Part shown: piece by piece, positions 19,794-43,059 of the stretch
How positions within the stretch are numbered: position 1 is the stretch's first letter
Layout: every line of letters begins with the position of its first letter
NCBI GenBank assembly: GCA_951406725.2
Contig: OX597843.1
Span: 5,580,001-5,644,000, forward strand
Reading direction: 5' to 3'
DNA from: Octopus vulgaris
Taxonomy: Eukaryota
Length of the DNA stretch: 64,000 bases
Notes under the pieces: generated by a model
Databases searched by the model: none
Told to the model about the DNA's origin: nothing
Seen by the model: only the letters and a program-made list of their open reading frames with translations
Translations under genes and position numbers: made by a program

Positions 19794-20384
19794 TTTTGGT
19801 AATGGTACCTGGAAGAAAGAGGAAGAATATACAGTAATGACTCAATATACAAGTTAATTTGTTCCCAAAGACTGCTCGTTAAGTGAAAACTCGTAAAGCA
19901 GAGCAATAATTTCCCACACAAGCAATGTTATAAATCATAATTCATTCCCAGGAAAATATTTTACCAAAAAATTTATAATACTCTCTTTTACTTGTTTTGG
20001 TCATTTGACTGCGGCCTTGCTGGAGCACCGCCTTTAGTTGACCAAATCGACCTCGGGTCTTATTCTTTGTAAGCCCAGTACTTATTCTATCGTTTTTTTT
20101 GCCGAACCGCTAAGTGACGGGGAAGTAAACACACCAGCATCGGTTGTCAAGCAATGCTAGGGGGACAAACACACACACACAAACACATACATATATATAT
20201 ATATATATACATATATACGACAGGCTTCTTTCAGTTTCTGTCTACCAAATCCACTCACAAGGCTTTGGTCGGCCCGAGGCTATAGCAGAAGACACTTGCC
20301 CAAGGGTCCACGCAGTGGGACTGAACCCGGAACCATGTGGTTGGTTAGCAAGCTACTTACCTCACAGCCATGGCAATAAAACAA

Positions 20385-20585
20385 CAGTAGAATGTAAAGA
20401 ATATTTTGTGTAAAGTAAAAACAATGTAAAGACCCTGCGTATGGAGAGGGTGCCATAGCTGAAAGAACCGCTCGTGATTGGTGTGCCAAGTTCAAAAATG
20501 GAAATTTTGACCTCAAAGACGCACCTCGTTCTGGCCGTCCAGTTTGATGAAGAGCGATTAACCTTACTTTTGTATGAAAATTCTT
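20385..20585 (+). mobile_element. Mariner transposase N-terminal remnant
   Basis: YGEGAIAERTARDWCAKFKNGNFDLKDAPRSGRP. Confidence 0.75.
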
Positions 20586-21214
20586 GCAGGAGAGGCTGCG
20601 TAGTAAGTAGCTTGCTTACCAACCACATCGTTCCAGGTTCAGTCCCACTGCGTGGCACTTTGTGCAAGTGTCTTCTACTATAGCCTCGGGCTAACCAAAG
20701 CCTTGTGAGTGGATTTGGTAGACGGAAACTGAAAGAAGCCTGTCATATATATATATATATACCTAAGCGTAGGAGTGGCTGTGTGGTAAGTAGCTTGCTT
20801 ACCAACCACATCGTTCCAGGTTCAGTCCCACTGCGTGGCACCTTGGGCAAGTGTCTTCTACTATAGCCTCGGGCTGACCAAAGCCTTGTGAGTGGATTTG
20901 GTAGACAGAAACTGAAAGAAGCCCGTCGTATATATGCATATGTGTATATATATATGTGTGAGAGTGTATTTTGTCCCCCCCCCCCACCCAGCATTCGCTT
21001 AACAACCGATGGTGGTGTGTTTATTTTCCCCGTAACTTAGCGGTTCGGCAAAAGAGACTGATATAATAAGTCCTGGGATCGATTTGCTCACCTAAAGGTC
21101 GTGCTCCAGCATGGCTGTAGTCAAAAGAGTAAATGTCAAGAGAAAATGGAAAGCTCCCACGCTGCTATTCGCTCCACACCGAACGTTTCTGTTCGGTTTA
21201 ATTCTTCAAGTGTG

Positions 21215-21271
<57 letters not shown>

Positions 21272-21349
21272 CTTGTGTAGGAGTGGCAAATCATACGAGA
21301 GACATCTATGCGTTAGAAAACAGAGACGATTACACTCCCAACATAGCTC

Positions 21350-21420
<71 letters not shown>

Positions 21421-22010
21421 GCGTGTGTGGTGCTCCAGCATGACCATATCCGCATGGCCGAAACACGTCAGATAAATACGGAGAGAATATATGCGGATTT
21501 GCCTGCGCATGTGTGTAGAAATAAATAAATAAATAAATATATATACACACACACACACGTTTTGATTAGACTCCTGTCAATTATTTATTAAAGACATGAT
21601 TATATATCCTCATTCTTGTGCAGTATTTTTCCTGTCACAATCACCATAGATATGTGTATATATATATGTATGTATATGTATATGCACACACGCAAAAAAA
21701 CTGGGAGTGGTGAAGTACTAAATACGAAACGTAGAGTTTATTAATGGAAGAAAAACAGGAATTATATTCACCCTGTTTATCACTCCGAATTTCACCTTAA
21801 TTGCTTTCCCATCCATTATGTGTGTATATATATGTCTTATCTTTTAATTGATTATTCACTGAGCTGCGGCCACGTTGGGGCACCGCCTTAAGGACTTTAG
21901 TCAAACAGATCGCCCGAGTACTTTCACACACAGACGTCCGTATATGCGTACGTGTACATTATACATACATATATGCATATATATATATATGTAAACTACG
22001 TACGTGTGCG

Positions 22011-22041
<31 letters not shown>

Positions 22042-22125
22042 TATATATGCCGTCTAAGAATCCATAAATCAGAAAAGATATTCACTCGTATATTTGTCAA
22101 TAGAGTGTGTATAATAATCGAAGTG

Positions 22126-22177
<52 letters not shown>

Positions 22178-22617
22178 GAATGTATATGTATATATATATA
22201 TATATATACGAATGTATATGTATATATATATGCACGGATGTATACAGATGAAGAAGAAAAACGAACAATATATGAATAGAAACACCTATGACTTAATTAA
22301 GAAATTCAATTTAATTACATAATTAATTTAATTGATATATATGAAAGCAATTAAGGAGATTAAATAAATAAAAAAAGCGGAGATGCGAGGCCGATGAGAG
22401 AACAGGATCTGAGCTGATTTCAGAAGGTAACCCCCCGTCCTTATGGAGACCCGAACAGAGGCAGACAAGGGGTCGTTTGTGGGCAATAGGGGCCGCGGTG
22501 TTGAGAGATAGGGGCCATCCCAGCTGATATGGGTGCAGCAAGTTGGTTGTTCAAAGGGTGTGAAATATGAATTAAATATAAATGAAAGTGGGGGGAATTA
22601 GTTGAAAATTGTCTTAC

Positions 22618-22708
22618 CCGGGAATTCCGGAACACGCTCGACGTGAAATGGTGAAATTTAGTTGTCTTCTCTTTGCTTAAAATAACGGCCAAAAAGGAAG
22701 AAGGACGA
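22618..22708 (-). other. Candidate 5' UTR exon of the ADAD-like gene
   Basis: Strong minus-strand donor CGG|GTAAGA at 22618/22617 in unique, CpG-containing sequence, with a pyrimidine tract near 22710-22735. A second donor (TGG|GTAAGG) lies near 23097. No transcript evidence. Confidence 0.35.
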
Positions 22709-25700
22709 CTTGGAGTAGGAAAGAAAGATGAAGGCTGCCTTCCCTCTCTCTCCGTCTAGCTTTCACTCCCTCTCCGCCTTTCTCTATCGTTTACTCTCCC
22801 TTTGTTTGTTTGTCTTTCACCCGCTCTCTTCTGTTACGATAGTGGCGGCGGTGGCGGTTTACTACGGATGTACAGAAGCGCTGTATTTGTAAAATCCAAG
22901 CGAAAACCCGACACTCCTTCGTCGTTGTTTCGTAGATGATATTTGAAACTCAACTCAATTCGTTTTTCTTTCGTTTCATTTATCATGTCCGGGTCATGTA
23001 ATCGAGTTGGCCTAATCCGTTTTCGACATTGCATAACGACATGGTGTTGTATTCTGCCGTGGTTCGGCATTTCACTGCACGGACACGTGTACCTTACCCA
23101 AAATACTCACACACACGACCCTTCATTTCCGGAGCACATAAGTATCTTAATTTATTTCAGTTCCCTTCGATCTGACCAACTGAGCTTGTCTGGTCCATTG
23201 TGAATCACACAGTGTTGTATCTATCATTTGACTTGAGACAGCATTCACCCGGGGTGGGTTGAGCTGGCTTCATTCATCCATCAGATGGTTGAGCATTTCG
23301 CGGGCCGTGTGGGCTCTTCACAAAATGCTCAAATATGAGTAACCATTCAAAGACTGAGCATTTCAGTTGAGGTTGCTGGTCACCCGGGGTGGGTTGAGCT
23401 GGCTTCATTCATCCATCATATGGCTGAGCATTTCGCGGGTTGTGTGGGCTTTTCACAAAATACTCAAATATGAGTAACCAGTCAAAGACTGAGCATTTCA
23501 GTTGAGGTTACTGGTCGTGTTCGGTTTGATCAACTGACCATGCGTAGCTAAATAAGGTGAACCAAATTATTATATTGTGGGGTTAAATATTGCTTATCCG
23601 TGCGTAACCATAAAAAAATTTACCAAGCATGAGTGATATTTCGCTGAGTATATCATTAATTCCAGTTGTGTGTGATTCCTTCAGACGAATTCGCCTACTC
23701 AGTGGTATATTATTATAATTGAGACTACCCTCGAGTACTTCACGAGTACGTATATTCTTAACATAAATCCTTGGAACAGAATCCACATGAAGAAAGGTAA
23801 AAAAAAAAACACTGGATCTTTTGAATTAGATAAAGTTCAATGAGAACGGCTGAAGATTCCGCAGATATGTGTGCCCTTCCTCGAGCAGAAACAGCAAGAA
23901 AAAGTGGGTACTTTGAATTACAGCTGGACTTCAGTGAGCACGTCCGAGTACTCCATAGTCGTACATGTACCCCTGGCGTAATCCACAGGTAGAAATAGCA
24001 CGACTGGTACTCAGGTGTGACAAGATCTGTTCCTTTAAATCACAGGATGCAATCCGTTTTGTACATAACATGGTGTTAAGAAATTCACAATTCTGTCGGT
24101 CCCTTCAAGTAAATCCAATCTTCCAGGCAGAAACGGCGGGTCCTTAAAATTACAGGTAACCAATCCATGCGATGAGCTTCCACGCAGTTTCCCACCAAAC
24201 CGATAACACTCACAAAGTTTTGGGTCAACCCGATTCTATGGTTTTAAAAAAAAAAAACAGTTCGAGGGATGCTATGATGTAAAATCGAACCTGGAACCTT
24301 GTGCTTGCAAAGCGAGCTTCTGCACAGCTTCCATATAACTGATAGCACTCACAAAATTTGAGTCAACTCGGGGCTATGGTAAAAAAAAAAAAAATGTTCA
24401 AGGATGCCATGGTCTACGATCGAACTCAGGACTTTACGATTGAGAAGCGACCTTCTTAACCACTCGACCACTACGTCGTCCAGTGGCGGCCATAATCGTC
24501 CTAACTTAATTCCACAAATATTGTCAAACTCTCTTTATCTTATCCATTTTCTTTCTTAATAAATACATATTTAGGTGTAATTTGCAAAAGAAAATTGGCT
24601 GTTATTTCTAGCAAGCCGAGTGACCACATAGAGGAGGGCTTTTTCCCCTCGTTGACTCGAGCCAATCAGGGAGGCCTGTATGTGGTCGCCCGACATGTTA
24701 GAAATAGCAGCCAAATCTCCCACAAATCACCCCACATCGTTTTTTTAGGGGAAAAAAATAAATAAAAAGGACAAATTAGATGATACAACCCTTGTTACAT
24801 ACAACATGGGTAATAATAATAATAGTAATAATAATAATAATTATAATAATGATAATAATAATAATAATAATAATGATAATAATAATAATAATAAAGAATT
24901 CGTTGTCGGATTAGAAGTGTGCAAGATTTTAAAGGCTCACCTGGGGTTAATTAACAACAGCAATAAGGTAATTTAGGGGGTAGAAAAGAATTTTGGTGAG
25001 AAGAGAAGTGGGGGGGAAGCAAAGATAAAATAAATAAATAAATAAATGTGTGTGTGTGAAATAGTTTTGCCTATTGTAAACTCTGCCGTCCTGAGTTCGA
25101 TTTCCCGGTTGTCGCAGAAAGCCAAAGAGGGCACCTTGGGATGACCAATACCAAAAAAAATTGCGAGTGGTGAACGGAAACTGCGAGGAAGCCCCATATA
25201 TATATAAATGCATATACACACATATATATATATGTTTATATAATGATATATATATATATATGTATATATATGCTTATATCGGGTGGAAAAAAGTGCAGGC
25301 GATCTCTGGTTCTGCACACATCATCGAATGGGTAGAACAATAAAGAAAAAAAATTACCATTTAAACCGGTGCGTCGAACAACAATACCTTGTGGTATTCA
25401 TTCCGCCCGAGTTTCGCACACACTCCCTTCTTCTCTCTTTATTCCCCCACCCCCACCACCGCCACCACCACCACCATCAGGAAAAAAGCAAAAAAATACA
25501 ACTAATCAAAATTTCTGTAATTAATTAATTAAAAAAAAAAAAATGCACCCTTATAGATATCAATTAATGATTGGGACTTCGAAGCATTTTCATAAAAATC
25601 GCATATTTTATTTTTGCGCAAAGTGGGAGGATACAGTCCGTTATTCTGTTTCGTTTTTCGCTTCTTAGGTTTAGTATTCCGGTTTTCTTTTTATATGTAC

Positions 25701-25896: not shown

Positions 25897-26114
25897 GGTA
25901 CTATTTAAGAAAAGTGGTCCCGGTGCGCGCACTCGCGTACACGCGCGTCCGTGCTAGCTAGTCGTGACTAGTCGATCCTACAACGACTACCTAGCAAAAT
26001 AAATATAACACAAAACACAAAGTAAATAAATTTTAAAACAAAGTAAATAAAACACAAAAACACGACTAGCTAGCGCGGATGCGCGCACCGGGACCACTTT
26101 TCTTAAATAGTACC
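25897..26114. mobile_element. MITE with ~35-bp TIR GGTACTATTTAAGAAAAGTGGTCCCGGTGCGCGCA
   Basis: Perfect terminal inverted repeats; further copies at 29991-30191 and 26745-26837 (partial). Confidence 0.8.
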
Positions 26115-26490: not shown

Positions 26491-27249
26491 AGGGCACCCT
26501 TATTATTATTTATTAATATTATTATTATTTTTATTAATAAACGTCACTGATTGGTTGAAATTGCCGAAATGCAAGACATTTAACAACAAATATCTTACAA
26601 ACTACAGAATTTTCTCAAGAAAGCCAAGAGAAAAAGATGTTTTATAAACACATTCTACCAGTGTACGAAATTAAAAACTTTTTTAGTTTCATACAACTTA
26701 TTTTAAAAATCTGCCGGTCAAAGTGAAAAGATCCTAATTTTTTAAAAATAAAACACAAAAACCCAAAGTAAGGATCGACTAGTCACGACTAGCTAGCGCG
26801 GATGCGCGCTCCGGGACCACTCTTTTTAAGTAGTACCTTCGATATAATTGTAATCTGCATCATCTGATAGTTTATTTGTAGAAAATCTCATTTAAAAATA
26901 TCTGTTTTTCTGAGAGTTATGAGGAAACAAATTCTAGCGGAGATCCACAATTGCGTAAGCGGGCCCCGAGCATCACTGTATCAGTTATCTCCCTTCCTTT
27001 AATGACGTCACTTATACGATGTACAGCTAAACAAATCTCTTTTCTACTGTTGGTCCACTGAAACCCATTCATCAGAATATTATTAAACATTATGCTTTAC
27101 ATCAGGGGATACTAGGGCGATCCTTCGGTATAGGTACCGTAATTACCGGAAGTGGCTTTGGTTACATTTCTGAAGATAACAGAAACCCTTTTCTCCCACC
27201 CCTAACACACACCTTCATATATAAAAAGAACACTTTCTTGAAATACATC

Positions 27250-28699: not shown

Positions 28700-29572
28700 A
28701 TGCGGACAGAGTTGAAAAAGAGAGAGTACGGGAGGGAAAGAAAGAGGAGAGTTAATGTGATAGTGGTGGTAACCAGTTGAGAAACCACTCCCAAAAGGGA
28801 CAAATTTTGACAGTTTTGACCATCCATAGTGTTGGGAGAGAGAGAGGGAAAAGAGGAGTGACAGAGTTTAAGGAGGACAGAAAGACGAGAGGGAAAGAGA
28901 GAAAGAGAAAAATGGATGAAAATGGGAAGAGTGATGGAGAAGAAGAGAGTAATAGAGAGAAAGAGAGTGGAAGAGAAAGTATGAGCGAAAAAAGAGGACA
29001 GAGAGGGAGACAGAAAGAGTATGAGAGGGAAAGAGGAGAAGAGACAAAAAGTATGAGTGGGAGAGAGAGGGAGAAAGAAAGAGTATAAGAAGGAAAGAGA
29101 GGGGGGAAAGAAAGAGTATGCGAGGGAAAGAGAGGGGGAAAGGAGTATGAGAGAGAGAAAAAGGGAAAGAGAGTATAAGAGGGAAAGAGGAGAGGAGACA
29201 AAAAGTATGAGTGGGAGAGAGAGGGAGAAAGAAAGAGTATAAGAAGGAAATAGAGGGGGAAAAGAAAGAGTATGAGAGAGAAACAGAGGGTGAAAAAAAG
29301 AGTTTGCGAGGGAAACAGAGGGGGAAAGGAGTGTGAAAGGTAAAGAGTGAAGAGACACAAAGAGAGTATGAGAGGGAAAGAGGAGAGGAAACACAAAGTA
29401 TGAGTGGGGGAGAGAGGGAGAAAGAAAAAGTATGAGAGAGAAACAGAGGGGGAAGGAGAAAAGAGACACAAAGAGTGTATTAGAGGGAAAGAGGAGAGGA
29501 GACAAAAAGTATGAGTGGGAGAGAGAGAGAGGGGGAGAAAGAAAGAGTAATAGAGGGGAAAGAGAGAGAGTA
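28700..29572. repeat. Purine-rich (GA) degenerate tandem repeat
   Basis: Recurrent gagtatgagagggaaagaggag units; source of the spurious L/S/F-rich ORFs. Confidence 0.85.
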
Positions 29573-29990
29573 GCGAGATAGTGGTTGTGGTGGTGGTTGC
29601 GTCGGTAAGACTCTCGTGCAGTTTCCGCTTCCTGTCCATCAGCTGTGTTCACGCTGGCTTCTTCATGTGGTTGTGAATATGTCGTAGTTTTATATACGCA
29701 TGGCCAACGGAAGAGCTTCCAGTGAGTGTATATAGAATATATATTACATAAATATAGGATCAACAAATAGACAGGGTAGGTATCCCTCGGCATTTAGTAA
29801 TATTTATTATATATCCATGAATTCCCGCGCACATGGTCGATGTTTAACTATATATATGTGTATATATGTATATATATGTATTTAAAGTTGCTTTTTGTGT
29901 TTTCTACGGGTTTCTTGAAGCCCACTTTGTTCCTACACCTTGATTCTTGGATTTTACATTTACACACACACAAACTAAGCGCCGAGAATC

Positions 29991-30191
29991 GGTACTACTT
30001 AAGAAAAGTGTTCCCGGTGCGCGCACTCGCGTACTCGCGCATCCGGGCTAGCTAGTCGTGACTAGTCGATCCTACAACGACTACCTAGCAAAGTAAATAA
30101 AACAAAAACATAAAGTAAGGATCGACTTGTCACGTCTAGCTAGCGCGTGTACGCGTGTGCACTTCCGGGACCACTCTTCTTAAATAGTACC
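29991..30191. mobile_element. MITE, second copy of the 25897-26114 family
   Basis: Same TIRs with a few mismatches. Confidence 0.75.
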
Positions 30192-30621: not shown

Positions 30622-30920
30622 TAATAAGGGTAGACATTGATAGACTTGTATATTTTGAGCTTGAAAGATTTTTGGAGTCGTAAGGCATCTATATATATAA
30701 AACGAAGAATATGTGTCTGTCTGTGTGAATCCCTAAAACTTGAGAACTACGCTACCAATTACATTCAAATTTTCAACCTCTTGCCTAGGGCGAGCCCACA
30801 ATAATATCATATCTTTACTATTTCAGTATTACGTGTCAAAAATGAAAGAAAACCATCTCTCTATTGTAATGTCAGATGCTTTCACTTTAATACTGAAACT
30901 ATTAAAGTCAAACTATTATA

Positions 30921-33783
30921 TAAGAGGAGCATCACATAATGTGGAAGACAACTGGAGGTTTCTACGGGAAAACCTGCTGAGAGCCACTGACCAGATCTGT
31001 GGCTGGTGCAAAGTCCCCACTCGACCCAAAGTAATGTGGTGGTGGAACGACGTGGTTGACAGGGCTATTAGACAAAAGAAACAGGCTTGGAAGGACGGAG
31101 GTAGCAGGGAAGTGTATCAGACTGCCAGAAGGGAAGCTAGGAGGCAGGTCTATTTAGCCAGAGGGGAAGCAGATAAGAAAAAAAATTGCCAATGTTCTGT
31201 GCCATGAGGACCAAAGACTTGAGGTATTTCGTGTTGCAAGACAGTGTGTGAGAGAGAATCGTGATGTGGTAGGAAAGAAATGTGTTCGCATGGAGGATGG
31301 TTCACTTGCGCTAAATGAGGATGCAAAGAGAGAGGTTTGGAGATGCCATTATGAAAGGTTGCTGAATAAAGAAAATGAATGGGATAAAGAGAGTCTGCCG
31401 AATGTCGACCCAACAGAGGGACCAGCTATCCGAGTTGATAGTTCCTTGGTAGTTAAGGCAATTAGAAGCATGAAGACAGGGAAAGCCCCAGGCTCATTAG
31501 GAATTACTGCAGAGATGCTCAAAATATCTGGCAGTGTCGGCTATAGCCTAGTCATCCGTATAGTTAACCAAGTGATACACTGAGTCATACCCAATGACTG
31601 GTGTAGCAGCATAATAGTCAACTGCTACAAAGGTAAAGGAGACGCCCTAGATACAAATAATTACAGAGGTATCAAGCTGTTGGATCAGGTAATGAAGGTT
31701 ACGGAGAGGGTCATAGCCTAACTGATTAGGGAGAGAGTCAACTTGGACGAGATGCAGTTTGGTTTCGTGCCAGGGAAAAGCACCACTGATGCCATATTTC
31801 TGGTGAGACAGCTGCAGGAGAAATACCTAGCCAAAGATAAGCCCCTGTACCTGGCTTTCGTTGACATGGAGAAAGCCTTTGACAGGGTCCCCCGATCCCT
31901 TATCTGGTGGTCAATGAGGAAACTAGGGATAGATGAATAGCTGGTGAGAGCTGTGCAAGCCATGTACAGGGATGCTGTAAGTAAGGTTAGGGTTGGCAAC
32001 GTGTACACAGAAGAATTCAAGGTAGAAGTTGGGGTCCACCAAGGTTCAGTCCTCAGCTCCCTCCTATTTATCATAGTCCTCCAGGCAATTACGGAGGAAT
32101 TCAAGACAGGTTACTCCTGGGAGCTCCTCTATGCTGACGACCTAGCTCTAATTGCTGAGTCACTATCAGAACTGGAGGAGAAGTTCCAGGTGTGGAAGGA
32201 GGGTTTAGAATCGAGGGGCCTTAGAGTCAACCTAGCTAAAACCAAAGTACTAATAAGTAGGAAGGTAGACAAACCACAAATGTCTTCAGGAACTTGGCCC
32301 TGCTCAATCTGTAGAAAAGGTGTAGGTAGAAACTCTACAAGATGTACCAAGTGTAAGCTATGGACACATAAGAGGTGCAGCAATGTCAAAGGAAGGCTAA
32401 CTAGGAAAATAGTTTTTATCTGTGGCAGATGCTGAGGAGCAATAAACTCTGAAAATCTGCAGAAAACAACTTCCGTCACTTTCCAGGGGGAAAAACTAGA
32501 AGTAGTTGATAGCTTCCGTTATCTAGGTGACCAAGTCAGTAGTGGGGGTGGGTGCGCTGAAAGTGTAACTGCTAGAGTAAGAATAGCCTGGGCAAAGTTC
32601 AAGGAGCTCTTACCTCTGCTGGTGACTAAAGGCTTCTCGCTCAGAGTAAAAGGCAGACTGTATGATGCATGTGTACGAACAGCCATGCTACATGGCAGTG
32701 AAACATGGGCCATGACTGTTGAGGACATGCGTAAGCTCGCGAGGAATGAAGCCAGTATGCTCCGATGGATGTGTAATGTCTGTGCATACTCGACAGAATG
32801 TAAGTACCTTGAGAGAAATGTTGGACTTAAGAAGCATCAGATGTGGTGTGCAAGAGAGACGATTGCGCTGGTATGGTCATGTGGCGAGAATGGATGAAGA
32901 TAGGTGTGTGAAAAAGTGCCAATCCCTAGCAGTTGAGGGAACCCGTGGAAGAGGTAGACCCAGGAAAACCTGGGACGAGGTGGTGAAGCACGACCTTCGA
33001 ACTTTAGGCCTCACCGAGGCAATGACTAGTGACCGAGACCTTTGGAAGTATGCTGTGCATGAAAAGACCAGGCAGGACAAGTGAGTCCAGCCCACTTATG
33101 CATGTCTTTCCTCCCTTGGACACAAAGACCTGTTGAGGCAAGCGAAGTTGATATCGAACCTCATCCGACGACAGGCACCCATGCCAACCTCCCTTCACTG
33201 GACACTAAACTCTGCTTGCAAAGACCTGTTGGGGCAAGTGAAATCGAAATTGAACCAATCCTATGACTGGCACCCGGCAGTTGCCAGGACCGCTGGACTG
33301 ACTCCTGTGCAGGTGGCAAGTGAAGAAACACCATTTCGACCCTCTGCTTGAGGAGATCCATTGAGTCAAGTACACCAACATCAAAATCAATGGAAACTGC
33401 AGTTGTGACCCCTGAGCCGGTGGCACATAAACAGCACCATCTGAAAGTGGCCGATGCCAGCACCGCCTAGACCGGCTTCCGTGCCGGTGGCATGTAAAAA
33501 GCCCCATCCGAATCGTGGCCGATGCCAGTGCCGCCTCGACTGGCTTCCGTGCCGGTGGCACATAAAATGCACCAATCCGATCGTGGCCGTTGCCAGCCTC
33601 GCCTGGCACATAAAAGCACCCACTACACTCACGGAGTGGTTGGCATTAGGAAGGGCATCCAGCTGTAGAAACACTGCCAGATCAGACTGGAGCCTGGTGC
33701 AGCCTTCTGGCTCCCCAGACCCCGGTCGAACCGTCCAACCTATGCTAGCATGGAGAACAGATGTTAAACGATGATGATGATGA
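30921..33783 (+). mobile_element. 5'-truncated, decayed RTE-clade LINE: RT region, Cys-rich insert, 3' UTR with internal tandem repeats, (GAT)n tail
   Basis: Motifs GKAPG, QFGFVPGKSTTDAIF, AFVDMEKAFDRV, GVHQGSVLS, LLYADDL, RLRWYGHV and RGRGRPRKTW. In-frame stops at about 31581, 31938 and 32433, plus frameshifts. Confidence 0.93.
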
Positions 33784-35695
33784 GGAGGAGGAGGAACTGT
33801 AACTGGACATCCATTCTGCTAGCAGAAGATCCGCTATGGTCTTATATACTCCACCACTGGTTTTAAATTCATACTAATCAAATTAATAATCAATTTTTCA
33901 CCCTTATTATTTTAAATCTAAATTTACATATATATATAGATCATCATCATCATCATCGTTTAACGTCCGTTCTCCATGCTAGCATGGGTTGGACGGTTCG
34001 ACCGGGGATCTGGGAAGCCAGAAGGCTGCACCAGGCTCCAGTCTTATCTGGCAATGTTTCTACAGCTGGATGCCCTTCCTAATGCCAACCACTCCGTGAG
34101 TGTAGTGGGTGCTTTTTACGTGCCACCTGCACAGGTGCCAGGCGAGGCTGGCAACGGCCACGGTCGGATTGGTGTATTTTATGTGCCACCGGCACGGAAG
34201 CCAGTCGAGGCAGTGCTGGCATCGGCCACGAGTCAGATAGTGCTTTTTACGTACCACCAGACCAGGGATCCTGGCTGGTTCAATTCGATTTCGATTTCGC
34301 TTGCCCCAACATGTCTTCACAAGCAAAGGGGGTTGGCATGGGTGCCTGTCGTACGGCCGGATTGGTGTATTTTACGTGTCCGGCCGTATGATATATATAT
34401 ATATAGATGTATATATATATAGATGTGTATATATATATAGATAGATGTATATGTATACATGTAGTATGTACACATATATACAGCCATACACACACACATA
34501 CATATATAGGTGCAGGTGTGGCTGTGTGGTAACAAACTTGGTTCCAAAACACATGGTCCTCAGTTCAGTCCCACTGTGTGGTGACTTGGCATGTGTCTTC
34601 TGCTATAGCCTCAGACCAACCAAAGCCTTGTCAATGGATTTTGTAGACAGAAACTGAAAGAAATCAATTGTATATGTAAGTCTATGTGTGTGTGTGTTTG
34701 TGTTTCTCCCTCATCACTGCTTTACAATTGGTGTTTGTTTATTTACATCCCCATAACTTACTAGTGTCACAAGAAGAAACTGATAGAATAAGTACCAGGC
34801 TTATCCAAATAAAAAAAAGCACTAGACAGTGTCTCATATTTTTGTTTGCCTACACAATTTATCTTTGTGTGTGTGTGTATACATACATATATATGTATAC
34901 ATATATGGATTTCATGGACAGTAACTGAAACAAATCAATCATGTATATATATGTATGTTTATATGTAAGTGTATGTGTGTCTTTGTCTCTGTTTTTCGCC
35001 CTCATCACTGCTTCACAACTGGTGTTCGTTTATTTACATCCCCATAACTTACTGGTGTCACCAGAAGAAACTGCTAGAATAAGTACCAGGCTTATCAACA
35101 TAAAAAAAGCACTACCCTGTGTCTCATATTTTTGTTTGCCCACTCAGTTGTATCTATCAATTTATCTTTGGTAGACGGAAACTGAAAGAAGCCCGTCGTA
35201 TATGTATATGTGTGTGTCTGTGTCTGTCTCCCACAACATTGCTTTACAACCGATACTGGTGTGTTTATGTCCCCGTAACTTAGCGGTTCTGCAAAAGAGA
35301 CCGATAGAATAAGTACTAGGCTTACAAAGAATGAGTCCTGGGGTCAATTTGCTCGACTAAAGGCAGTGCTCCAGCATGGCTGCAGTCAAATGACTGAAAC
35401 AAGTAAAAGAGTAAACCATTTTCTTGTGGGACAGTTAGTCAAACTGATCGTGCTGAAGCTCTCCACTTTGTTTAGCTGTTCCAACCGTGACCATCCTGTC
35501 TTTCTTTTTTCTTTCAGATTGTTTTCATCTAGAACCCCTTTGCCTTTGTCCTTCGTATTTCGAAAGAGAAAAAAGACAGTGAAAAGAAGTTTGGCTACTA
35601 TTTCTAGCTGCTCGAGAGACCACCTCGTAAGAAGTAGCCACATTTTTTTTTTTTTTTCCATCCATTCGAGAGGAAGGCCCCCAGGTCCAGGAATA

Positions 35696-35941
35696 ATGGT
35701 TGTCTACCACGACGAGGTTGAAATCGAAGACATGGAATACGACGAAGAGTCCGAACTCTACCACTTCCCGTGTCCGTGCGGCGACCGGTTCGAGATCAGC
35801 TTGGAAGACCTAGAAAACGGTGAAACCGATGCCACTTGCCCCGGCTGTTCCCTGGTCATTAAAGTCATATATGATGTTGAGGACTTCATGCAGACTGAAA
35901 AAGTGAGCCGTGTCCCCAAACTCCAGACGGCCTGCGCTTAA
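35696..35941 (+). CDS. DPH3: Diphthamide biosynthesis protein 3 (DPH3/KTI11, CSL zinc finger), 81 aa, uninterrupted ORF
   Basis: [60 protein letters not shown] contains the CPCGD...CPGCSL signature. ATG context is ataATGG. The longer ORF-track start lies in SINE sequence. Confidence 0.95.
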
Positions 35942-36545
35942 AGAGGAAAGCCGAAGCAATTGTATAATTTATATTCCAAAGTAAGTATTGTTATTAATCT
36001 TACTAGGCAGTCTTTGACTTTAACGTCCCACTCGGCCAAAGGGCAGTCTTTGACTATAAGCATGTCATTTATTTAGCCAAAATTAAGCTGGTATTGTATA
36101 ATTTATATATCAAAATTTAGCTGGTATTGTATAATTTATATATCAAAGTAAGTATAGTTATTAATCTTACTAGGCAGACATACTTAGTATGTCCTCTAAT
36201 TAATTTTAATCCCTCAGCTAATTAATGCTATTTTTTGGCCTGCTATCGCCTGTGTCATTGATTCTGTTATTATCATTTTTTTAAATAGTACATTGGATAA
36301 TAATAGAATTAATGACACCTTCGCAAATTAATTTTTGGTGAATTATATATACATACATACGACAGGCTTCTTTCAGTTTCCGTCTACCAAATCGACTCAC
36401 AAAGCTTTGGTTGGCGCGATGCTATAGTAGAAGACACTTGCCCAAGGTGCCACGCAGTGGGACTGATCCCAGAACCATGTGTTTTGTAAGCAAGCTCCTT
36501 ACCACACTGCTACTCCTGCGCCTGTATATACTTATTCATACATAC

Positions 36546-36596
<51 letters not shown>

Positions 36597-36695
36597 GATA
36601 AATATTAGGGAATAAATCCAAACTTACAGGGAAAAATCAGATTTAGAATTGAATCCAATTTTATAGTATTATTGGATGCTCAGGAAAGAAGGAGG

Positions 36696-36730
36696 GTTTA
36701 ATGTTTCGAGCGGAGCTCTTCGTCGGAAAC
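36696..36730 (-). ncRNA. Degenerate minimal hammerhead motif (Penelope-type)
   Basis: GTTT-CCGACGA-A-GAGC-TCC-GCTC-GAAAC-ATT-AAAC. Stems I and II pair, but the core and stem III deviate. Confidence 0.45.
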
Positions 36731-36779
36731 ATAGGAGAAGGGAAGACAGAGGAAAAATCGCCACATACATATATATATA

Positions 36780-37556
36780 ACGGGCTTCTTTCAGTTTCCC
36801 TCGACCAAATCCACTCACAAGGCTTTGGTCGGTCCGAGGCTATAGTAAAAGACACTTGCCCAAGGTGCCACGCAGTGGGACTGAACCCGGAACCCTGTGG
36901 TTCGTAAGCAAGCTACTTACCACACAACCACTCCTGCGCCTATGAAAATGAAAACCATTTGAACGGACCGTGGAATTACCCTCAGGCAGAGAAAACGAAA
37001 GCATTTAAATAATTGGACGACAAGGAACACACCTCCATTCCGTTTGACCTCACCCAATCGAAAGTGAAACTTCAGGAAAACCCACAGGAAAATCACCTAA
37101 ATTTTATGCTTATATTTTACTTGTTTCAGTGAAATGACAGCGGCCGAGCTGGAGCAATGTCGGGAAGAATTTTAGTTGAATAAATCAACCCCTAGTACTC
37201 TTTTTTTTTTTTTTTTTTGTGTGTATGTATATGTGTTGCTTTTTTCTTTTCTTTTTCGAGTCTGGTTTTTATTGTCATTCTGTTTTGCTGAACCGCTAAG
37301 TTACGGGGGATGCAAACACACCAACATTGGTTGCCAAGCGGTGTAGATGGTGGTGGTGGTGGTGGTGGGCAGATACACTCACACACACATATGTATATAC
37401 ATATGTATTCTATTCAGTCTTTGGTCTGTGGCCATGCTGGAGTCTACTCCAGTTCTAAGTCTGGTGCCTTTTTGCCAAACCGCTACATAATGGGGAAGTA
37501 AACAAACCATCACTGTCAGGCAATGGTGGGGGACAAACACAAACACACTCATAGGC

Positions 37557-37595
<39 letters not shown>

Positions 37596-38866
37596 TGTGG
37601 CCATGCTGGAGCACTGCCTTTAGTCGAAACAAATCAGCCCCCAGGACTTATTCTTTGTAAGTCTAGTACTTATTCTATCGGTCACTTTTGCCGAACCGCT
37701 AGGTTACGGGGACGCAAACAAACACACACATTTACGTTGGGCTTCTTTCAGTTTCCATCTACCAAATCCACTCACAAGGCTTTGGTCGACTCAAGGTGCC
37801 CTGATGTGGGACTGAACCCGGATCCCTGTGGTTGGGAAGCAAGTTTATTATCACACACCCTAGCCTACGCCTGTGTGTATATCGCTTTTCTTTTTTCTTT
37901 TACTTGTTTCAGTCATTTGACTACGGCCATGCTGGAGCACCGCCTTTAATCGAGCAACTTGACCCCCAGGACTTATTCTTTGTAAGCCTAGTACTTATTC
38001 TATCGGTCACTTTAGCCAAACCGCTAAGTGACGGGGACGTAAACACACAAGCATCGGTTGTCAAGCAATGCTAGGGGGACAAACACACATATACATATAT
38101 ACGACAGGCTTCTTTCAGTTTCCGTCTACCAAATCCACTCACAAGGCTTTGGTCGGTCCGAGGCTATAGTAAAAGACACTTGCCCAAGGTGCCACGCAGT
38201 GGGACTGAACCCGGAACCCTGTGGTTCGTAAGCAAACTGCTTACCACACAGCCACTCCTGCACCTATGAAAATGAAAACCATTTGAACGGACCGTGGAAT
38301 TACCCTCAGGCAGAGAAAACGAAAGCATTTAAATAATTGGACGACAAGGAACACACCCCCATTCCGTTTGACCTCACCCAATCGAAAGTGAAACTTCAGG
38401 AAAACCCACAGGAAAACCACCTAAATTTTATGCTTATATTTTACTTGTTTCAGTGAAATGACAGCGGCCGAGCTGGAGCAATATTGGGAAGAATTTTAGT
38501 TGAATAAATCAACCCCTAGTACTCTTTTTTTTTTTTTTTTTTTGTGTGTATATGTGTTGCTTTTTTTTTTTCTTTTTCGAGTCTGGTTTTTATCCTGTCA
38601 TTCTGTTTTGCTGAACCGCTAAGTTACGGGGGACGCAAACACACCAACATTGGTTGCCAAGCGGCGTAGATGGTGGTGGTGGGCAGATACAGACACACAT
38701 ATGTATATACATATGCATTTTATTCAGTCTTTGGACAGTGGCCATGCTGGAGTCTACTCCAGTTCTAAGTCTGGTGCCTTTTTGCCAAACCGCTGCATCA
38801 TGGGGAAGTAAACAAACCATCACTGTCAGGCGATGGTGGGGGACAAACACAAAGACACTCATAGGC
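36780..38866. repeat. Local direct duplication of ~780 bp (36780-37555 and 38100-38866)
   Basis: SINE head plus the non-repeat sequence atgaaaatgaaaaccatttgaacggaccgtgg... present twice with high identity. Confidence 0.85.
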
Positions 38867-40148
38867 ATATATATAAAGCTGCTGTTGTCTGTGTATGGCA
38901 GGTTTGGTAGCCTTCAACTAACACAATCTCCTCCGGGACCCTGCGGCACAAGTTGACCAAAATTGAGAGTTTGATAAAAGAAGGCTTGCTCTTCCTTCCG
39001 TAGAAGAAAAAAATTCAAATGGGACAATGTTAACACCAAAAATTATTTACATCAAAAAGGTGCTTTTTTTCTATGAAAATCCCTATTTTTTACTACTTTT
39101 TTACTGCTGTGTCGCCATTTTTCGGTGTATTTCAACCAGAAAAATGTTCACTTAAAGAGAATAACAAGCTACATAATGCAAAATTTTTACTTTTCAAAAA
39201 TTCCAATTCTAAAGGGTCGAAACAAACCCGAGTAACGCCGGGCGATACTGCTAGTTTACATATATATATTTGTGTGTGTATTTATATTTGTATAAATGTT
39301 TGTCTTGACTTGATTTTTCCCTCGTAGACTTAAAGGTGGGGGCTGATAAATCAAGAACCAACTGGATATTGGTCCTCATTCTATATGCTGGGTGATATTG
39401 AAATTTCGCTAAAACCATGCACCATTCAAGCGTTGGGCCTCACGGAAGCAACGACAAATGACCGAGGCCTTTGGCAATATGCGGTGCCTGAGAAGAAGAC
39501 CCCATGAAGCCCCCAAGTGAAATAGCAGTCGTGGCAGATACTGGTGTAATGCAACTGGCACACAAAAGCACCTATTACATTCTCGGAGTGGTTAGCGTAA
39601 GGAAGGGTATCCAGCCGTAAAAACCATGCGAAACCTATCTGGAATCTGGTGCAGCCCCTCGGTTTACCAGCCCTGGTTAAACCATCCAACCCATGCCACC
39701 ATGGTCAACGGACGTTAAGTGATGATGATGATATATACAGAGAGAGCCGGGGGGGGGTTAATGTATGAAAACAAGAGAGAGAAAATTTTGAAATACCTTG
39801 TTTTTACTCATCTTTTCTTTGGTGTATATATATACGTGTGTAGAAATCAAAATATGTGAGTGTGTATAAATAAAAATAAATATATATAATTGTGTCTGTA
39901 TGTAAGTTGTGTATAAATGTACTTATATATAGCACTCTCTCCCCGTGTAAACTCCAGCAACATTGAAGTGGTTTCGATTTTATCCACCCACAAGCAGTGA
40001 TCACGTGGCTTTCTGTTTACCCAGGAAGTACAGAGGTCTCTTGCAGTCTGACCTATTTATAAAGTAGGGGAAATCCCACCGTAATATGGTCACGAATATG
40101 CTGTCTCTCTCACTCTCGTTCTCTCTCTCTCTCTCTCTCTGTCTATCT

Positions 40149-40183
<35 letters not shown>

Positions 40184-40216
40184 TGTCTCTCTCTCTCTCT
40201 CTCTCATTATGTATCT

Positions 40217-40331
40217 TTAAATGGGCAAAGGTAAAAAAAATACGCACACCACCCGATTTTCGGCGTAAACCTAACCCTGCATCCTAACCCTAACCACCGG
40301 GTGTGCGTATTCTTTACCTTCGCCCTTTAAA
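40217..40331. mobile_element. Small palindromic MITE-like element with TTTAAA ends and internal CCTAAC units
   Basis: gggcaaaggtaaa...atacgcacacc pairs with ggtgtgcgtat...tttaccttcgccc. Confidence 0.5.
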
Positions 40332-41034
40332 CGTATTTGTATGTATGCCTATACATATGTGTATTTGTGCTCCAGCATGGCTGCAGTCAAATGCCTGAAA
40401 CGGGTAAAAGAATTCACACGCACCCGTTCATTCTCTCTGACATAGAATATGGTGGGTTGCTCGTCCTGTTAGAAAGAGCCGCTAAATTCACTTCAAGCCA
40501 CATCTATCTGAACAGGAAAGTCGTGATGGCCACAACTGGAATGTCGGTGAGAGGCTTGGACTGTCCAAGGGTGAACAACAACGTAGGGTAATTTAGCGCA
40601 GTTATGTCCCTTGCCCCATTAACGAATCTATTCAATAAAGGGGAAGGAGTTATGTCCCTTGCACCGCCAACATAAAGTAATGGCGAACTTAAGACTCTTT
40701 CGCCACAACTTTCGTTCTACCTGCATCTTGCGGCTCACCTGCGACGGACCGGTGTCCTGTCCAGGTGGGGAACCTATACGCCAAAGAAACCGGGAAACCG
40801 GGCCTTATGAGCCAGGCTTGGCTTGAGAAGGAACAAACAAATATATACTCTACTCTTTTAGTTGTTTCAGTCATTTGACTGCGTCTACCAGCACCGCCTT
40901 TATCTACAAATCGACCACTTATTATTTGTAAGCCCAGTACTTATTCTATCGGTCTCTTTTGCTGAACCGCTAAGTAACGGGGACGTAAACACACCAGCAT
41001 CGGTTGTCAAGCAATGCTAGGGGGACAAACATAG

Positions 41035-41089
<55 letters not shown>

Positions 41090-41307
41090 TACGACGGGCT
41101 TCTTTCAGTTTCCATCTACCAAATCCACTCACAAGGCATTGGTCGGCCCGAGGCTATAGCAGAAGACACTTGCCCAAGGTGCCACAGCAGTGGGACTGAA
41201 CCCAAACCATGTGGTTAGTAAGCAAGCTACTTACCACACAGCCACTCCTGCAACTTGTTTATTAATTAGTTTAAATTAATTTTATTTTCTCTTTTGTTGT
41301 GTTCCAG

Positions 41308-41459
41308 GTCCTGCTTGCCCCGGCCGTTGGTTGCCGTGGTCATCATCATCATCATCATCATCATCGTCATGATCCAAGAAAGTTGTTGACTGTTGCTGTG
41401 GTGACCCAACAAAATAATTAAGTATATCACCAATAAAAAAAAAAAGTGATAAATATCCG
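41308..41459 (+). other. Candidate non-coding exon upstream of RFXAP
   Basis: Long pyrimidine tract with ttccAG|G at 41307/41308 and a possible donor CCG|GTAATC at 41459/41460. Confidence 0.35.
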
Positions 41460-42066
41460 GTAATCGGCAAATTTTGAAATTTCCTAACAAATTAATTCTA
41501 CGTTTTGGAGAAGTGAAATCTTGCTTTTTTTTTTTTGCATTTTTAAAAACTTTTTCTTTGTTTTTCAAATTTCTTTATTATTGATTGAAAAAAATTTTTT
41601 AATTTCGAATTCAATTCATTTCTCTCATTTTACAAATTCAGAAAAGAATATAATAATAATAATGATCCATTTTACTATAGGCACAAGGCCTGAAATTTTG
41701 TGGGGAGGGGCCAGTTGATTTCCTTGACCCCCCCACTCCAATGCTGGACTGCAGCTTGGTTTATTAACCCCATGAGGACGAAGAGCCAAATTTGACCTCA
41801 ACATAATTAGAACTGAGAGCATGAAACCAGGAGAAATAATAATAATAATAATGTTGATTTCAAGTTTGGTGTAAGGCCTGCAATTCCATCGACCCCAGAA
41901 CACTACTGGTACTTTATTCATTTCACCCTGAAAGAATAAAAGATGAAGTTTGATTTTGGTGGAATTTGAACTGACAATATAAGAAATAATAATAATAATA
42001 TTATGAGAAGGTATTTGTGTTTCTTAATTGGATATTAATTAAACAGGTGTACGACATTTTGAATTC

Positions 42067-42786
42067 ATGGACAGTGAGGAGGAAATGCCAGACTCTGAGG
42101 TACTTTTGCCGAGTGTTGCGAAACCAGCTGTTGTTGGTTCAAAACGCAGGCGTGTCAAACGTAAGGGGAATCCAGCCACTGGCTCCAAGATGGGGTCTGG
42201 TTCCACAGCGACTTCGACTTCATCGGACAAGGTCCGAATCACGGAGTCTACAGCGGCGACGGCAGTGATGACAGCAGTGACCACCAGCAACTCCACCACC
42301 AGCGCGGCCACTGTATCTCATGTGAGTAGTAAAAAGCAATCGCGTAAGAACTCGACGAGCCGACAGGAGGCTCAGAAGGAAACGAAGGGCGGTCAGGCTT
42401 CGGTGGCGCTGACCCCTAGTACGGCCGTAGTGAGTACAGGGGGCGAGAGTAGGCCCTCGTCAACGACGAGCCTGGACACGTCGACCGTAACACCACCTCC
42501 CCCTTTGCCACCCCAACTGCACCCGCACCCTTCCCTGCTGGTGAAGGAGACCCATGCCTCGTTTAACGAACCCGTCGTCAGTGAGTACAGCTTAACCCCG
42601 AGTCTACTCGACGAGGTGCTCTCACAGAAAAAACTCAGGCTCTTACGGTCCCCCGATGTGGTGAAATTCTTCAAACAACGACAACAGCAGACCCTGTTGG
42701 CCAACAGCCGGAGCATACGGGGCTTAGGACAGCTTTCGGTGACCACCACCACTAATGTTGCTGATAGGACTCACTTCAAAAACTGA
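42067..42786 (+). CDS. RFXAP: Regulatory factor X-associated protein-like (RFXAP), 239 aa: low-complexity Ser/Thr body, basic NLS-like stretch and conserved C-terminal motif
   Basis: PSLLDEVLSQKKLRLLRSPDVVKFFKQRQQQ matches the human RFXAP C-terminal region as I recall it (PTLLEQVLNQKRLSLLRSPEVVQFLQKQQQ). KRRRVKRK is NLS-like. Acceptor aacAG|G at 42046/42047 and AATAAA at 42877-42882. The frame is open back to the acceptor, so an upstream coding exon is not excluded. Confidence 0.75.
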   Translation: MDSEEEMPDSEVLLPSVAKPAVVGSKRRRVKRKGNPATGSKMGSGSTATSTSSDKVRITESTAATAVMTAVTTSNSTTSAATVSHVSSKKQSRKNSTSRQEAQKETKGGQASVALTPSTAVVSTGGESRPSSTTSLDTSTVTPPPPLPPQLHPHPSLLVKETHASFNEPVVSEYSLTPSLLDEVLSQKKLRLLRSPDVVKFFKQRQQQTLLANSRSIRGLGQLSVTTTTNVADRTHFKN

Positions 42787-42876
42787 CAACTTTTATTTTA
42801 CAAAAAAAAAAAAAAAAATTGAGACTCTCTTTTTTAAAAAAAAAATATTAATTAAAAAAGAGAAACTAAATTATTT

Positions 42877-42882
42877 AATAAA
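42877..42882 (+). terminator. Polyadenylation signal for the RFXAP-like transcript
   Basis: AATAAA about 90 nt after the stop, followed by T-rich sequence. Confidence 0.5.
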
Positions 42883-43059
42883 TGTAAATATATTTATATA
42901 TATTTTTTGCTATTATAGAGTTCTCTTTTTTTTTTTCTTCAATTGCTGTTACTGTTTTTCACGCGTGCTTTATTTCTTTAGCTTCCAGGTCAAGCCATAT
43001 AACACACCTGGCTACAAATGTTCGGATTATGTTCACTGTATCTTTTATTTCAGACCTAG

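Follow-up and report, generated by a model that had tools for sequence, protein, structure and literature searches.

DPH3 and RFXAP have, to our knowledge, no functional link, and in humans their genes lie on different chromosomes. In the octopus window analysed here (64,000 nucleotides of Octopus vulgaris contig OX597843.1), complete ORFs for DPH3, a small translation-fidelity gene, and, downstream of it, for an RFXAP-like gene lie on the same strand, raising the question of whether they are expressed from a single spliced mRNA. A preliminary description had proposed that DPH3 is either the upstream cistron of an RFXAP mRNA or a cassette exon behind a shared promoter. We conclude that the locus is probably one transcription unit that yields a two-ORF mRNA as well as single-ORF isoforms, with the link from the third to the fourth exon (E3 to E4) being inferred. 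Use of the DPH3 donor, the internal position of the DPH3 exon behind a distant first exon and the linkage of the pair in other molluscs bear part of the proposal out; among the contigs mapped at the DPH3 exon, none reached 42047.

Both ORFs stand as previously read, DPH3 without interruption and the RFXAP-like ORF followed by AATAAA (Table 1). The upstream ORF encodes DPH3/KTI11, a CSL zinc ribbon in an acidic protein of about 80 residues: it covers the whole Pfam Zn_ribbon_CSL profile (E = 1.1e-23; 83.2 bits, cut-off 29.2) and matches Octopus bimaculoides DPH3 at 94%. The downstream product ends in an RFXA_RFXANK_bdg domain (36.7 bits, cut-off 26.1) that aligns only to profile positions 72–109 of 122, and it matches PDB 2kw3_C with an E value of 5.4e-7. 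It resembles vertebrate RFXAP (PDB 2kw3 chain C) in this C-terminal helical domain, whereas the remainder of the octopus protein is low-complexity and unalignable. Molluscan RFXAP-like homologues span 89–326 aa and, as far as we know, the vertebrate role of RFXAP in MHC class II expression cannot apply to them. The Octopus sinensis RFXAP-like protein carries the name integrator subunit 6 homolog. The two ORFs are thus independent, conserved and unfused; an in-frame DPH3–RFXAP fusion was rejected because the DPH3 stop precedes the donor, as the earlier reading of the visible donors had held. Retrocopies were also rejected, as DPH3, the RFXAP domain and E1 each have one match in the genome and the E3 region has only a weak second one.

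Table 1. Features of the DPH3–RFXAP locus, in window coordinates.
Feature	Position	Strand	Remarks
E1, first or upstream exon	29580–29775	+	3′ end shown, 5′ end approximate; loose end of X5
E2, internal exon containing the entire DPH3 ORF	35518–35980	+	spliced at both ends (run X5)
DPH3/KTI11 ORF	35696–35941	+	81 codons (81 aa), uninterrupted, strong start context
Local duplication with second donor copy (GT at 36148)	36078–36153	+	zero depth, no use seen
E3, non-coding spacer exon	41308–41459	+	6-codon uORF; start shown by loose ends in X5, X14 and X7, end inferred
AATAAA in E3, at start of an A-run	41432–41437	+	candidate early poly(A) signal, from sequence only
E4, terminal exon	42047–42900	+	acceptor 42046 predicted from sequence; end approximate
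RFXAP-like ORF	42067–42786	+	239 aa, low-complexity, C-terminal RFXAP domain
AATAAA, likely poly(A) signal of the RFXAP exon	42877–42882	+	sequence

Contigs from 6 of the 24 listed runs were examined, and cover of the DPH3 exon was usable in four (X1 and X16 lacked it). None of the runs is recorded as RNA; it is the GT–AG joins themselves that mark the contigs as spliced. The proposed junction from 35980 to 41308 is present in three of the four runs, each from a different study (X5, X14 and X7), whose contigs leave the genome at 35982 and resume from 41310 onward. In all four runs, and in both mappings, depth is zero right after the donor, with 35985–36152 empty. This donor (GT at 35981) is the consensus site already noted 39 nt 3′ of the DPH3 stop, and its nearby duplicate is likewise present. 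At the other end of E2, the X5 contig (cover 35517–35982) also departs from the genome, and in this one run position 29775 is joined to E2, entering the genome at 35517. The exon reached in this way, E1, had been missed in the preliminary description and carries three short uORFs. Both acceptors described downstream, 41307 and 42046, exist, and two further acceptor-like sites lie between, at 37912 and 39327.

By the mapping tool's 31-letter rule, E2–E3 is bridged only by two X7 records (30 letters displayed); the short sides hold 30 letters at each junction in X5, and 26 and 11 in X14. Logan unitigs overlap at branch nodes for k = 31, and the X5 unitigs include 30 letters from E1 and 30 from E3, exactly as such an overlap predicts. 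The pattern fits an E1–E3 join that skips the DPH3 exon; it is seen in one of two runs at the 5′ junction and in one of three at the 3′ one, and might stem from unspliced RNA or from alleles instead.

E3 lies about 600 bases upstream of the RFXAP-like gene, and its end is placed by the GT at 41460, the donor-like site that scores highest (5.1) of the three passing the threshold in the 200 nt from the exon start. The AATAAA at 41432 within it, which the preliminary description had overlooked, makes a DPH3-only mRNA possible. The sequence past this hexamer forms a poor U-rich element, with a T fraction of 0.38 compared with 0.62 after 42877. Nearer the DPH3 stop, the reported lack of a poly(A) hexamer over some 400 nt extends further, as neither AATAAA nor ATTAAA occurs in 35942–36610 and the first lies at 36611; this absence is weak evidence: when the 400 nt after the stop were shuffled 2000 times, 34% of the products also had neither hexamer.

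The short distance from the DPH3 stop to the first junction had been taken to protect a two-ORF mRNA from NMD. That argument was misapplied, as the 55-nt rule, in the available text of PMC3951408, concerns the terminal junction. If E3 is spliced onward at 41459, the last junction is 191 nt downstream of the DPH3 stop; a DPH3-only mRNA that ends in E3 therefore accounts for the 39-nt spacing at least as well. Against our reading, the hexamer at 41432 and the 39 nt separating the stop from the E2/E3 junction together make a complete, NMD-immune DPH3-only mRNA.

In the single-unit reading that we favour, a four-exon mRNA (E1–E2–E3–E4) would carry both ORFs, with 211 nt from the DPH3 stop to the RFXAP start if donor 41460 is used, and would be translated mostly into DPH3. 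Leaky scanning to RFXAP is unlikely because the DPH3 start is strong and seven ATGs occur from there to the RFXAP start. Most RFXAP would be made from an isoform that skips the DPH3 exon and some through re-initiation on the two-ORF mRNA, and a DPH3-only mRNA may arise by early polyadenylation in E3. In this scheme one promoter would serve both proteins, and their ratio would depend on how often the exon is included.

The alternative that survives best, although we consider it unlikely, is a shared promoter giving single-ORF mRNAs only: DPH3 from E1–E2–E3 ending at the 41432 signal, and RFXAP from E1 joined to E3–E4 or directly to E4, the latter through donor 29722, which would lengthen the N terminus slightly. 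It agrees with the AATAAA inside E3, with the X5 branch pattern and with a DPH3 stop 39 nt short of the junction that would then be the last. Of nine donors tested, 29722 alone would bring an upstream ATG (29700) into frame with RFXAP, provided that the DPH3 exon is skipped. Similarity to a cephalopod-like homologue starts six codons ahead of ATG 42067, at position 42049, where the first complete codon of E4 lies. For the 24 residues by which the cephalopod-like protein is longer at its N terminus, no homologue in the window is among the matches listed. This donor and its ATG had gone unremarked in the preliminary description. A precedent exists in the 130 fly genes in FlyBase with a common promoter and 5′ exons (PMC4528330, in the part available). 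The poor U-rich element after 41432 speaks against single-ORF mRNAs only, an E3 that is spliced onward in the skip isoform could be so in E2-containing transcripts too, and an unbranched contig with both whole ORFs, suggested by size matches in other molluscs, would be unexpected.

Two separate tandem genes, with DPH3 ending in E3, an RFXAP promoter within 36–42 kb and the order being plain microsynteny, seem improbable. No E3–E4 contig was found among those mapped at the DPH3 exon, and the sequence near 39,990–40,065, in an interval that consists largely of repeats, as described before, contains promoter-like motifs that we take to be E-box-, ETS- and TATA-like. However, the motif stretch is probably itself a repeat because three further copies at 74–77% lie on the same chromosome; the X5 branch at the end of E1, the isoform labels of the Crassostrea virginica pair and size matches down to 912 nt also argue against tandem genes. 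Least probable of all is that the two-ORF RNA is an unproductive read-through or NMD target yielding no RFXAP: its second junction would lie the same 191 nt after the DPH3 stop and mammalian ribosomes re-initiate poorly after 81 codons, but the layout is apparently retained across bivalves and cephalopods. Moreover, the RFXAP ATG lies 20 nt past the last, predicted junction at the E4 acceptor, near enough to clear the junction complex according to human data in the accessible part of PMC3951408.

The linkage expected in other molluscs is found in scallop and oysters. DPH3 and an RFXAP-like gene share a scaffold in all three named bivalves in which both were seen, with consecutive accessions in Mizuhopecten (OWF35591/OWF35592) and Saccostrea cucullata (XP_062577172/XP_062577171), and in C. 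virginica both lie on the same chromosome with the labels isoform X2 and isoform X1. The entries P0023 and P0164 have ENA contigs of identical size (339,427 bases). The pairing is old. Among Logan proteins, 30 DPH3 and 36 RFXAP rows gave five exact matches in longest-contig size (shifted control: mean 0.54, maximum 3, n = 120), three of them above 1500 nt (mean 0.125, maximum 2, n = 200); a further match (996) came from a cluster opened afterwards, two RFXAP rows having 996. Equal sizes suggest that both ORFs lie on single contigs of 0.9–4.5 kb in three other mollusc groups; equal size does not prove one contig, nor does a contig spanning two genes prove a single molecule. The 1124 match, pairing a hydrozoan-like DPH3 with an oyster RFXAP, is probably chance, and size 2463 is also found for a JGI protein. 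In Magallana gigas, none of four DPH3 members matched in size any of the 15 RFXAP members listed (of 21).

Elsewhere, DPH3 seems to keep other company. Three metagenome contigs carry an animal-type DPH3 followed closely by PDCD2, Ipi1/TEX10 or RPC31. Of 80 metagenome loci with DPH3, most of them non-molluscan, none had an RFXAP-like match nearby; a metagenome scan with an RFXAP alignment confirmed none of 595 candidates, and a protein atlas search gave no usable match. The functional coupling of the two proteins once suggested finds no evidence; other animals seem to place different genes after DPH3. What joins the pair is probably a common housekeeping promoter rather than a common pathway. 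More tentatively, the two-ORF mRNA may have been kept since the bivalve–cephalopod ancestor, with DPH3 as a serial hitchhiker, a 5′ cistron that swaps partners (RFXAP, PDCD2, TEX10/Ipi1, RPC31); the DPH3 tree is poorly resolved, with one other clade not placed with octopus, and the RFXAP tree is a quick one.

The pairing was not found in the papers searched: the one paper listed for the two genes together is, by its listing, unrelated, no DPH3 paper with a dicistronic or polycistronic term was among the matches listed, and no literature on RFXAP evolution or orthologs in oyster was found. Term searches were empty in the available main text of PMC9115989 and PMC2276209 and the available supplements of PMC4528330, PMC7896298 and PMC8573964; Dph3, sought by a fly gene number, was not found in the 11 of 12 supplementary files of PMC4528330 that were searched.

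Long-conserved two-ORF mRNAs are rare in animals, and a bivalve–cephalopod pair with a skippable upstream cistron provides a system in which dosage control of two unrelated proteins by one promoter, via splicing and re-initiation, can be tested. The arrangement also explains gaps in annotation: with pipelines that retain a single ORF for each transcript, DPH3 or RFXAP may seem to be missing or may carry a wrong name, as in Octopus sinensis. Should DPH3 be an upstream cistron time and again, the supply of diphthamide and Elongator would be linked to the translation of other housekeeping mRNAs; were the hitchhiker reading true, these loci would offer a ready-made set in which to study how re-initiation proceeds past an ORF of 80 codons.

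A conserved small housekeeping protein also serves as the upstream cistron in ASDURF–ASNSD1, MOCS2A/B and altMIEF1–MIEF1, although the MOCS2 and MIEF1 pairs are functionally linked, which DPH3 and RFXAP are not known to be. MOCS2 is also named in the available part of PMC4528330, in which small proteins are over-represented at dicistronic or shared-promoter loci of Drosophila and many such loci also make single-ORF isoforms, some via splicing. Stop-to-start gaps in the obligate cases given there run from −34 to 319 nt, compared with the 211 nt possible in octopus; unlike those loci, the mollusc pair spans bivalves and cephalopods. The SNURF–SNRPN bicistronic mRNA, as presented in the accessible text of PMC3951408, places a short conserved ORF upstream of a longer unrelated one on a spliced mRNA, as the predicted octopus mRNA would, with 45 nt from upstream stop to junction against 39 nt for octopus DPH3. 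It differs in that the octopus upstream ORF lies whole in one apparently skippable exon and encodes a known metal-binding electron donor.

The DPH3 and RFXAP-like open reading frames (ORFs; table) each have one match in the genome, and Octopus proteins are the nearest named relatives of both. The latter ORF also matches human RFXAP in PDB 2kw3 (E 5.4e-7); one of its relatives, an Octopus sinensis protein, carries the label 'integrator complex subunit 6 homolog', a misnaming that probably stems from low complexity.

Coordinates of the ORFs in the window and of metagenome contigs pairing DPH3 with another ORF
Feature	Positions	Strand	Description
DPH3 ORF, 81 aa	35696-35941	+	Pfam Zn_ribbon_CSL, E 1.1e-23
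RFXAP-like ORF, 239 aa	42067-42786	+	RFXAP C-terminal domain, 36.7 bits (cut-off 26.1)
Contig L005	134-1775	same strand	DPH3 nearest Aplysia, then PDCD2 after 253 nt
Contig L006	344-1359	same strand	arthropod-like DPH3, then Ipi1/TEX10 after 23 nt
Contig L009	436-1459	same strand	animal-like DPH3 of unclear group, then RPC31 after 4 nt

As the preliminary description had it, a splice donor follows the DPH3 stop by 39 nt and has a duplicate copy, AATAAA and ATTAAA are missing just 3′ of the stop, and the interval to RFXAP is made up mostly of repeats; the second donor copy is at 36148 and the first of the hexamers at 36611. Because 34% of shuffles of the 400 nt also lack both hexamers, the missing poly(A) signal alone is a weak argument. 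Transcript evidence came from contigs of 6 of the 24 listed runs, none recorded as RNA, aligned as two sets (X1, X5, X6 and X14; X5, X14, X7 and X16), with the DPH3 exon uncovered in X16. In the first set, X5 cover spans 35517–35982 and depth over 36000–36209 is zero in all four runs. Loose contig ends past 35982 resume at 41310 onward in three runs from three studies, with 1–3 letters differing, and the proposed junction 35980→41308 is therefore in use; bridging by 31 letters per side was found here in X7's two records only. On the 5′ side, the DPH3 exon in X5 joins an exon ending at 29775 through anchors unique in the window, a junction based on 30 letters in one run. Both joins together place DPH3 in an internal exon (E2) flanked by E1 and E3; E1–E2–E3 is the only part of the exon chain shown.

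Around these exons, a long GA-rich tandem array (29000–29530) lies immediately 5′ of E1, and a MITE-like inverted-repeat element occurs in several copies (25915–26110, 26780–26830 and 30000–30190). The E1–E2 intron holds what we take to be a decayed LINE-type reverse transcriptase copy (30900–33100). The E2–E3 intron contains a duplication of ~0.8 kb (36762–37565 and 38086–38875; 94–96% identity), and E-box-, ETS- and TATA-like motifs occur at 39990–40090, a stretch of which three further copies (74–77%) cluster at another place on this chromosome. Exons of a minus-strand gene with a double-stranded RNA binding motif occupy 14640–22900 (Pfam dsrm, 18388–18567), and a CpG-rich stretch at ~22,600–23,200 is its likely promoter region.

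Our preferred reading is a single promoter from which three products are possible. A form joining E1–E2–E3 to the RFXAP exon (E4) would yield DPH3, plus some RFXAP via re-initiation over ~211 nt; a form skipping E2 would yield RFXAP; and one ending early would yield DPH3. Leaky scanning to RFXAP is unlikely, as the DPH3 start codon has a strong context and seven ATGs run from the DPH3 start to the RFXAP start. None of the contigs aligned at the DPH3 exon was seen to reach 42047, where E4 begins. The E3 donor at 41460 is moderate (score 5.1), and E3 contains an AATAAA at 41432, overlooked previously, with a poorer tail than the 42877 signal (T fraction 0.38 versus 0.62). NMD-escape spacing had been cited for the two-ORF form; the 55-nt rule applies to the terminal junction (a passage of PMC3951408), the four-exon form has a junction 191 nt 3′ of the DPH3 stop, and a DPH3 mRNA ending in E3 satisfies the rule, so the spacing does not favour two ORFs.

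Skipping is hinted at by X5, whose unitigs carry exactly 30 letters of E1 and exactly 30 of E3, the number that a k = 31 graph would leave if it branched at both points; with X5 cover absent from the introns flanking E2, this is most simply explained by an E1→E3 skip. The 5′ junction in X6 has 28 letters, and X14 and X7 unitigs are not broken at 30, making this a hint from a single run. A second E1 donor, at 29722, is the sole one of nine tested to put an upstream ATG into the RFXAP reading frame; similarity to a homologue begins at 42049, six codons 5′ of the ATG at 42067 (7 of 12 identical).

DPH3 and RFXAP-like genes share a scaffold or chromosome in all three named species in which both proteins appeared; Ylistrum, Ostrea, Tegillarca and Saccostrea echinata each showed one partner only. 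Their accessions are consecutive in Mizuhopecten and Saccostrea cucullata, and the Crassostrea virginica labels (isoform X2, DPH3-like; isoform X1, RFXAP-like) may denote one annotated gene. An ENA pair lies on contigs of equal length (339,427). Among Logan proteins (30 DPH3 versus 36 RFXAP-like rows), the length of the longest contig matched exactly five times (4509, 3393, 2463, 1124 and 912), against a mean of 0.54 and a maximum of 3 over 120 offsets in a shifted control; above 1500 nt there were three, against a mean of 0.125. The 1124 match, between an oyster protein and a DPH3 of hydrozoan type, is probably chance; the other four fit plausibly by group. A single DPH3 clade (support 100/100) is tied three times to a single RFXAP clade, which a quick tree places together with the octopus protein; we infer that these clades come from squid or cuttlefish. 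Opening a Mytilus-type cluster after the 30 × 36 comparison brought one more match (996), and Magallana gigas gave 0 of 4. Equal lengths, which are blind to strand, order and RNA origin, suggest that both whole ORFs lie inside 0.9–4.5 kb of contiguous sequence in other molluscs.

No RFXAP-like hit lay near the DPH3 relative in 80 metagenome loci; 19 of the 80 have a same-strand ORF of at least 120 aa starting within 600 nt of DPH3, and 6 of the 17 such ORFs scanned have Pfam matches. The three tabulated contigs, with uninterrupted ORFs, animal-like DPH3 and neither AATAAA nor ATTAAA in the gap, look like mRNAs, and the remaining partners (kinase, Arm repeat and bromodomain) may be ordinary neighbours. 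These other partners are a lead; because they change, they argue for shared housekeeping expression rather than a shared pathway.

The DPH3–RFXAP arrangement is real and old, and apparently undescribed so far: no report of the pair was found in the literature searched, outside which fell most subscription papers and bioRxiv supplements. It does not yet count as a true bicistronic mRNA; its layout works like that of SNURF–SNRPN and of the fly dicistronic and shared-promoter loci, most of which, according to a passage of PMC4528330, also produce single-ORF isoforms.
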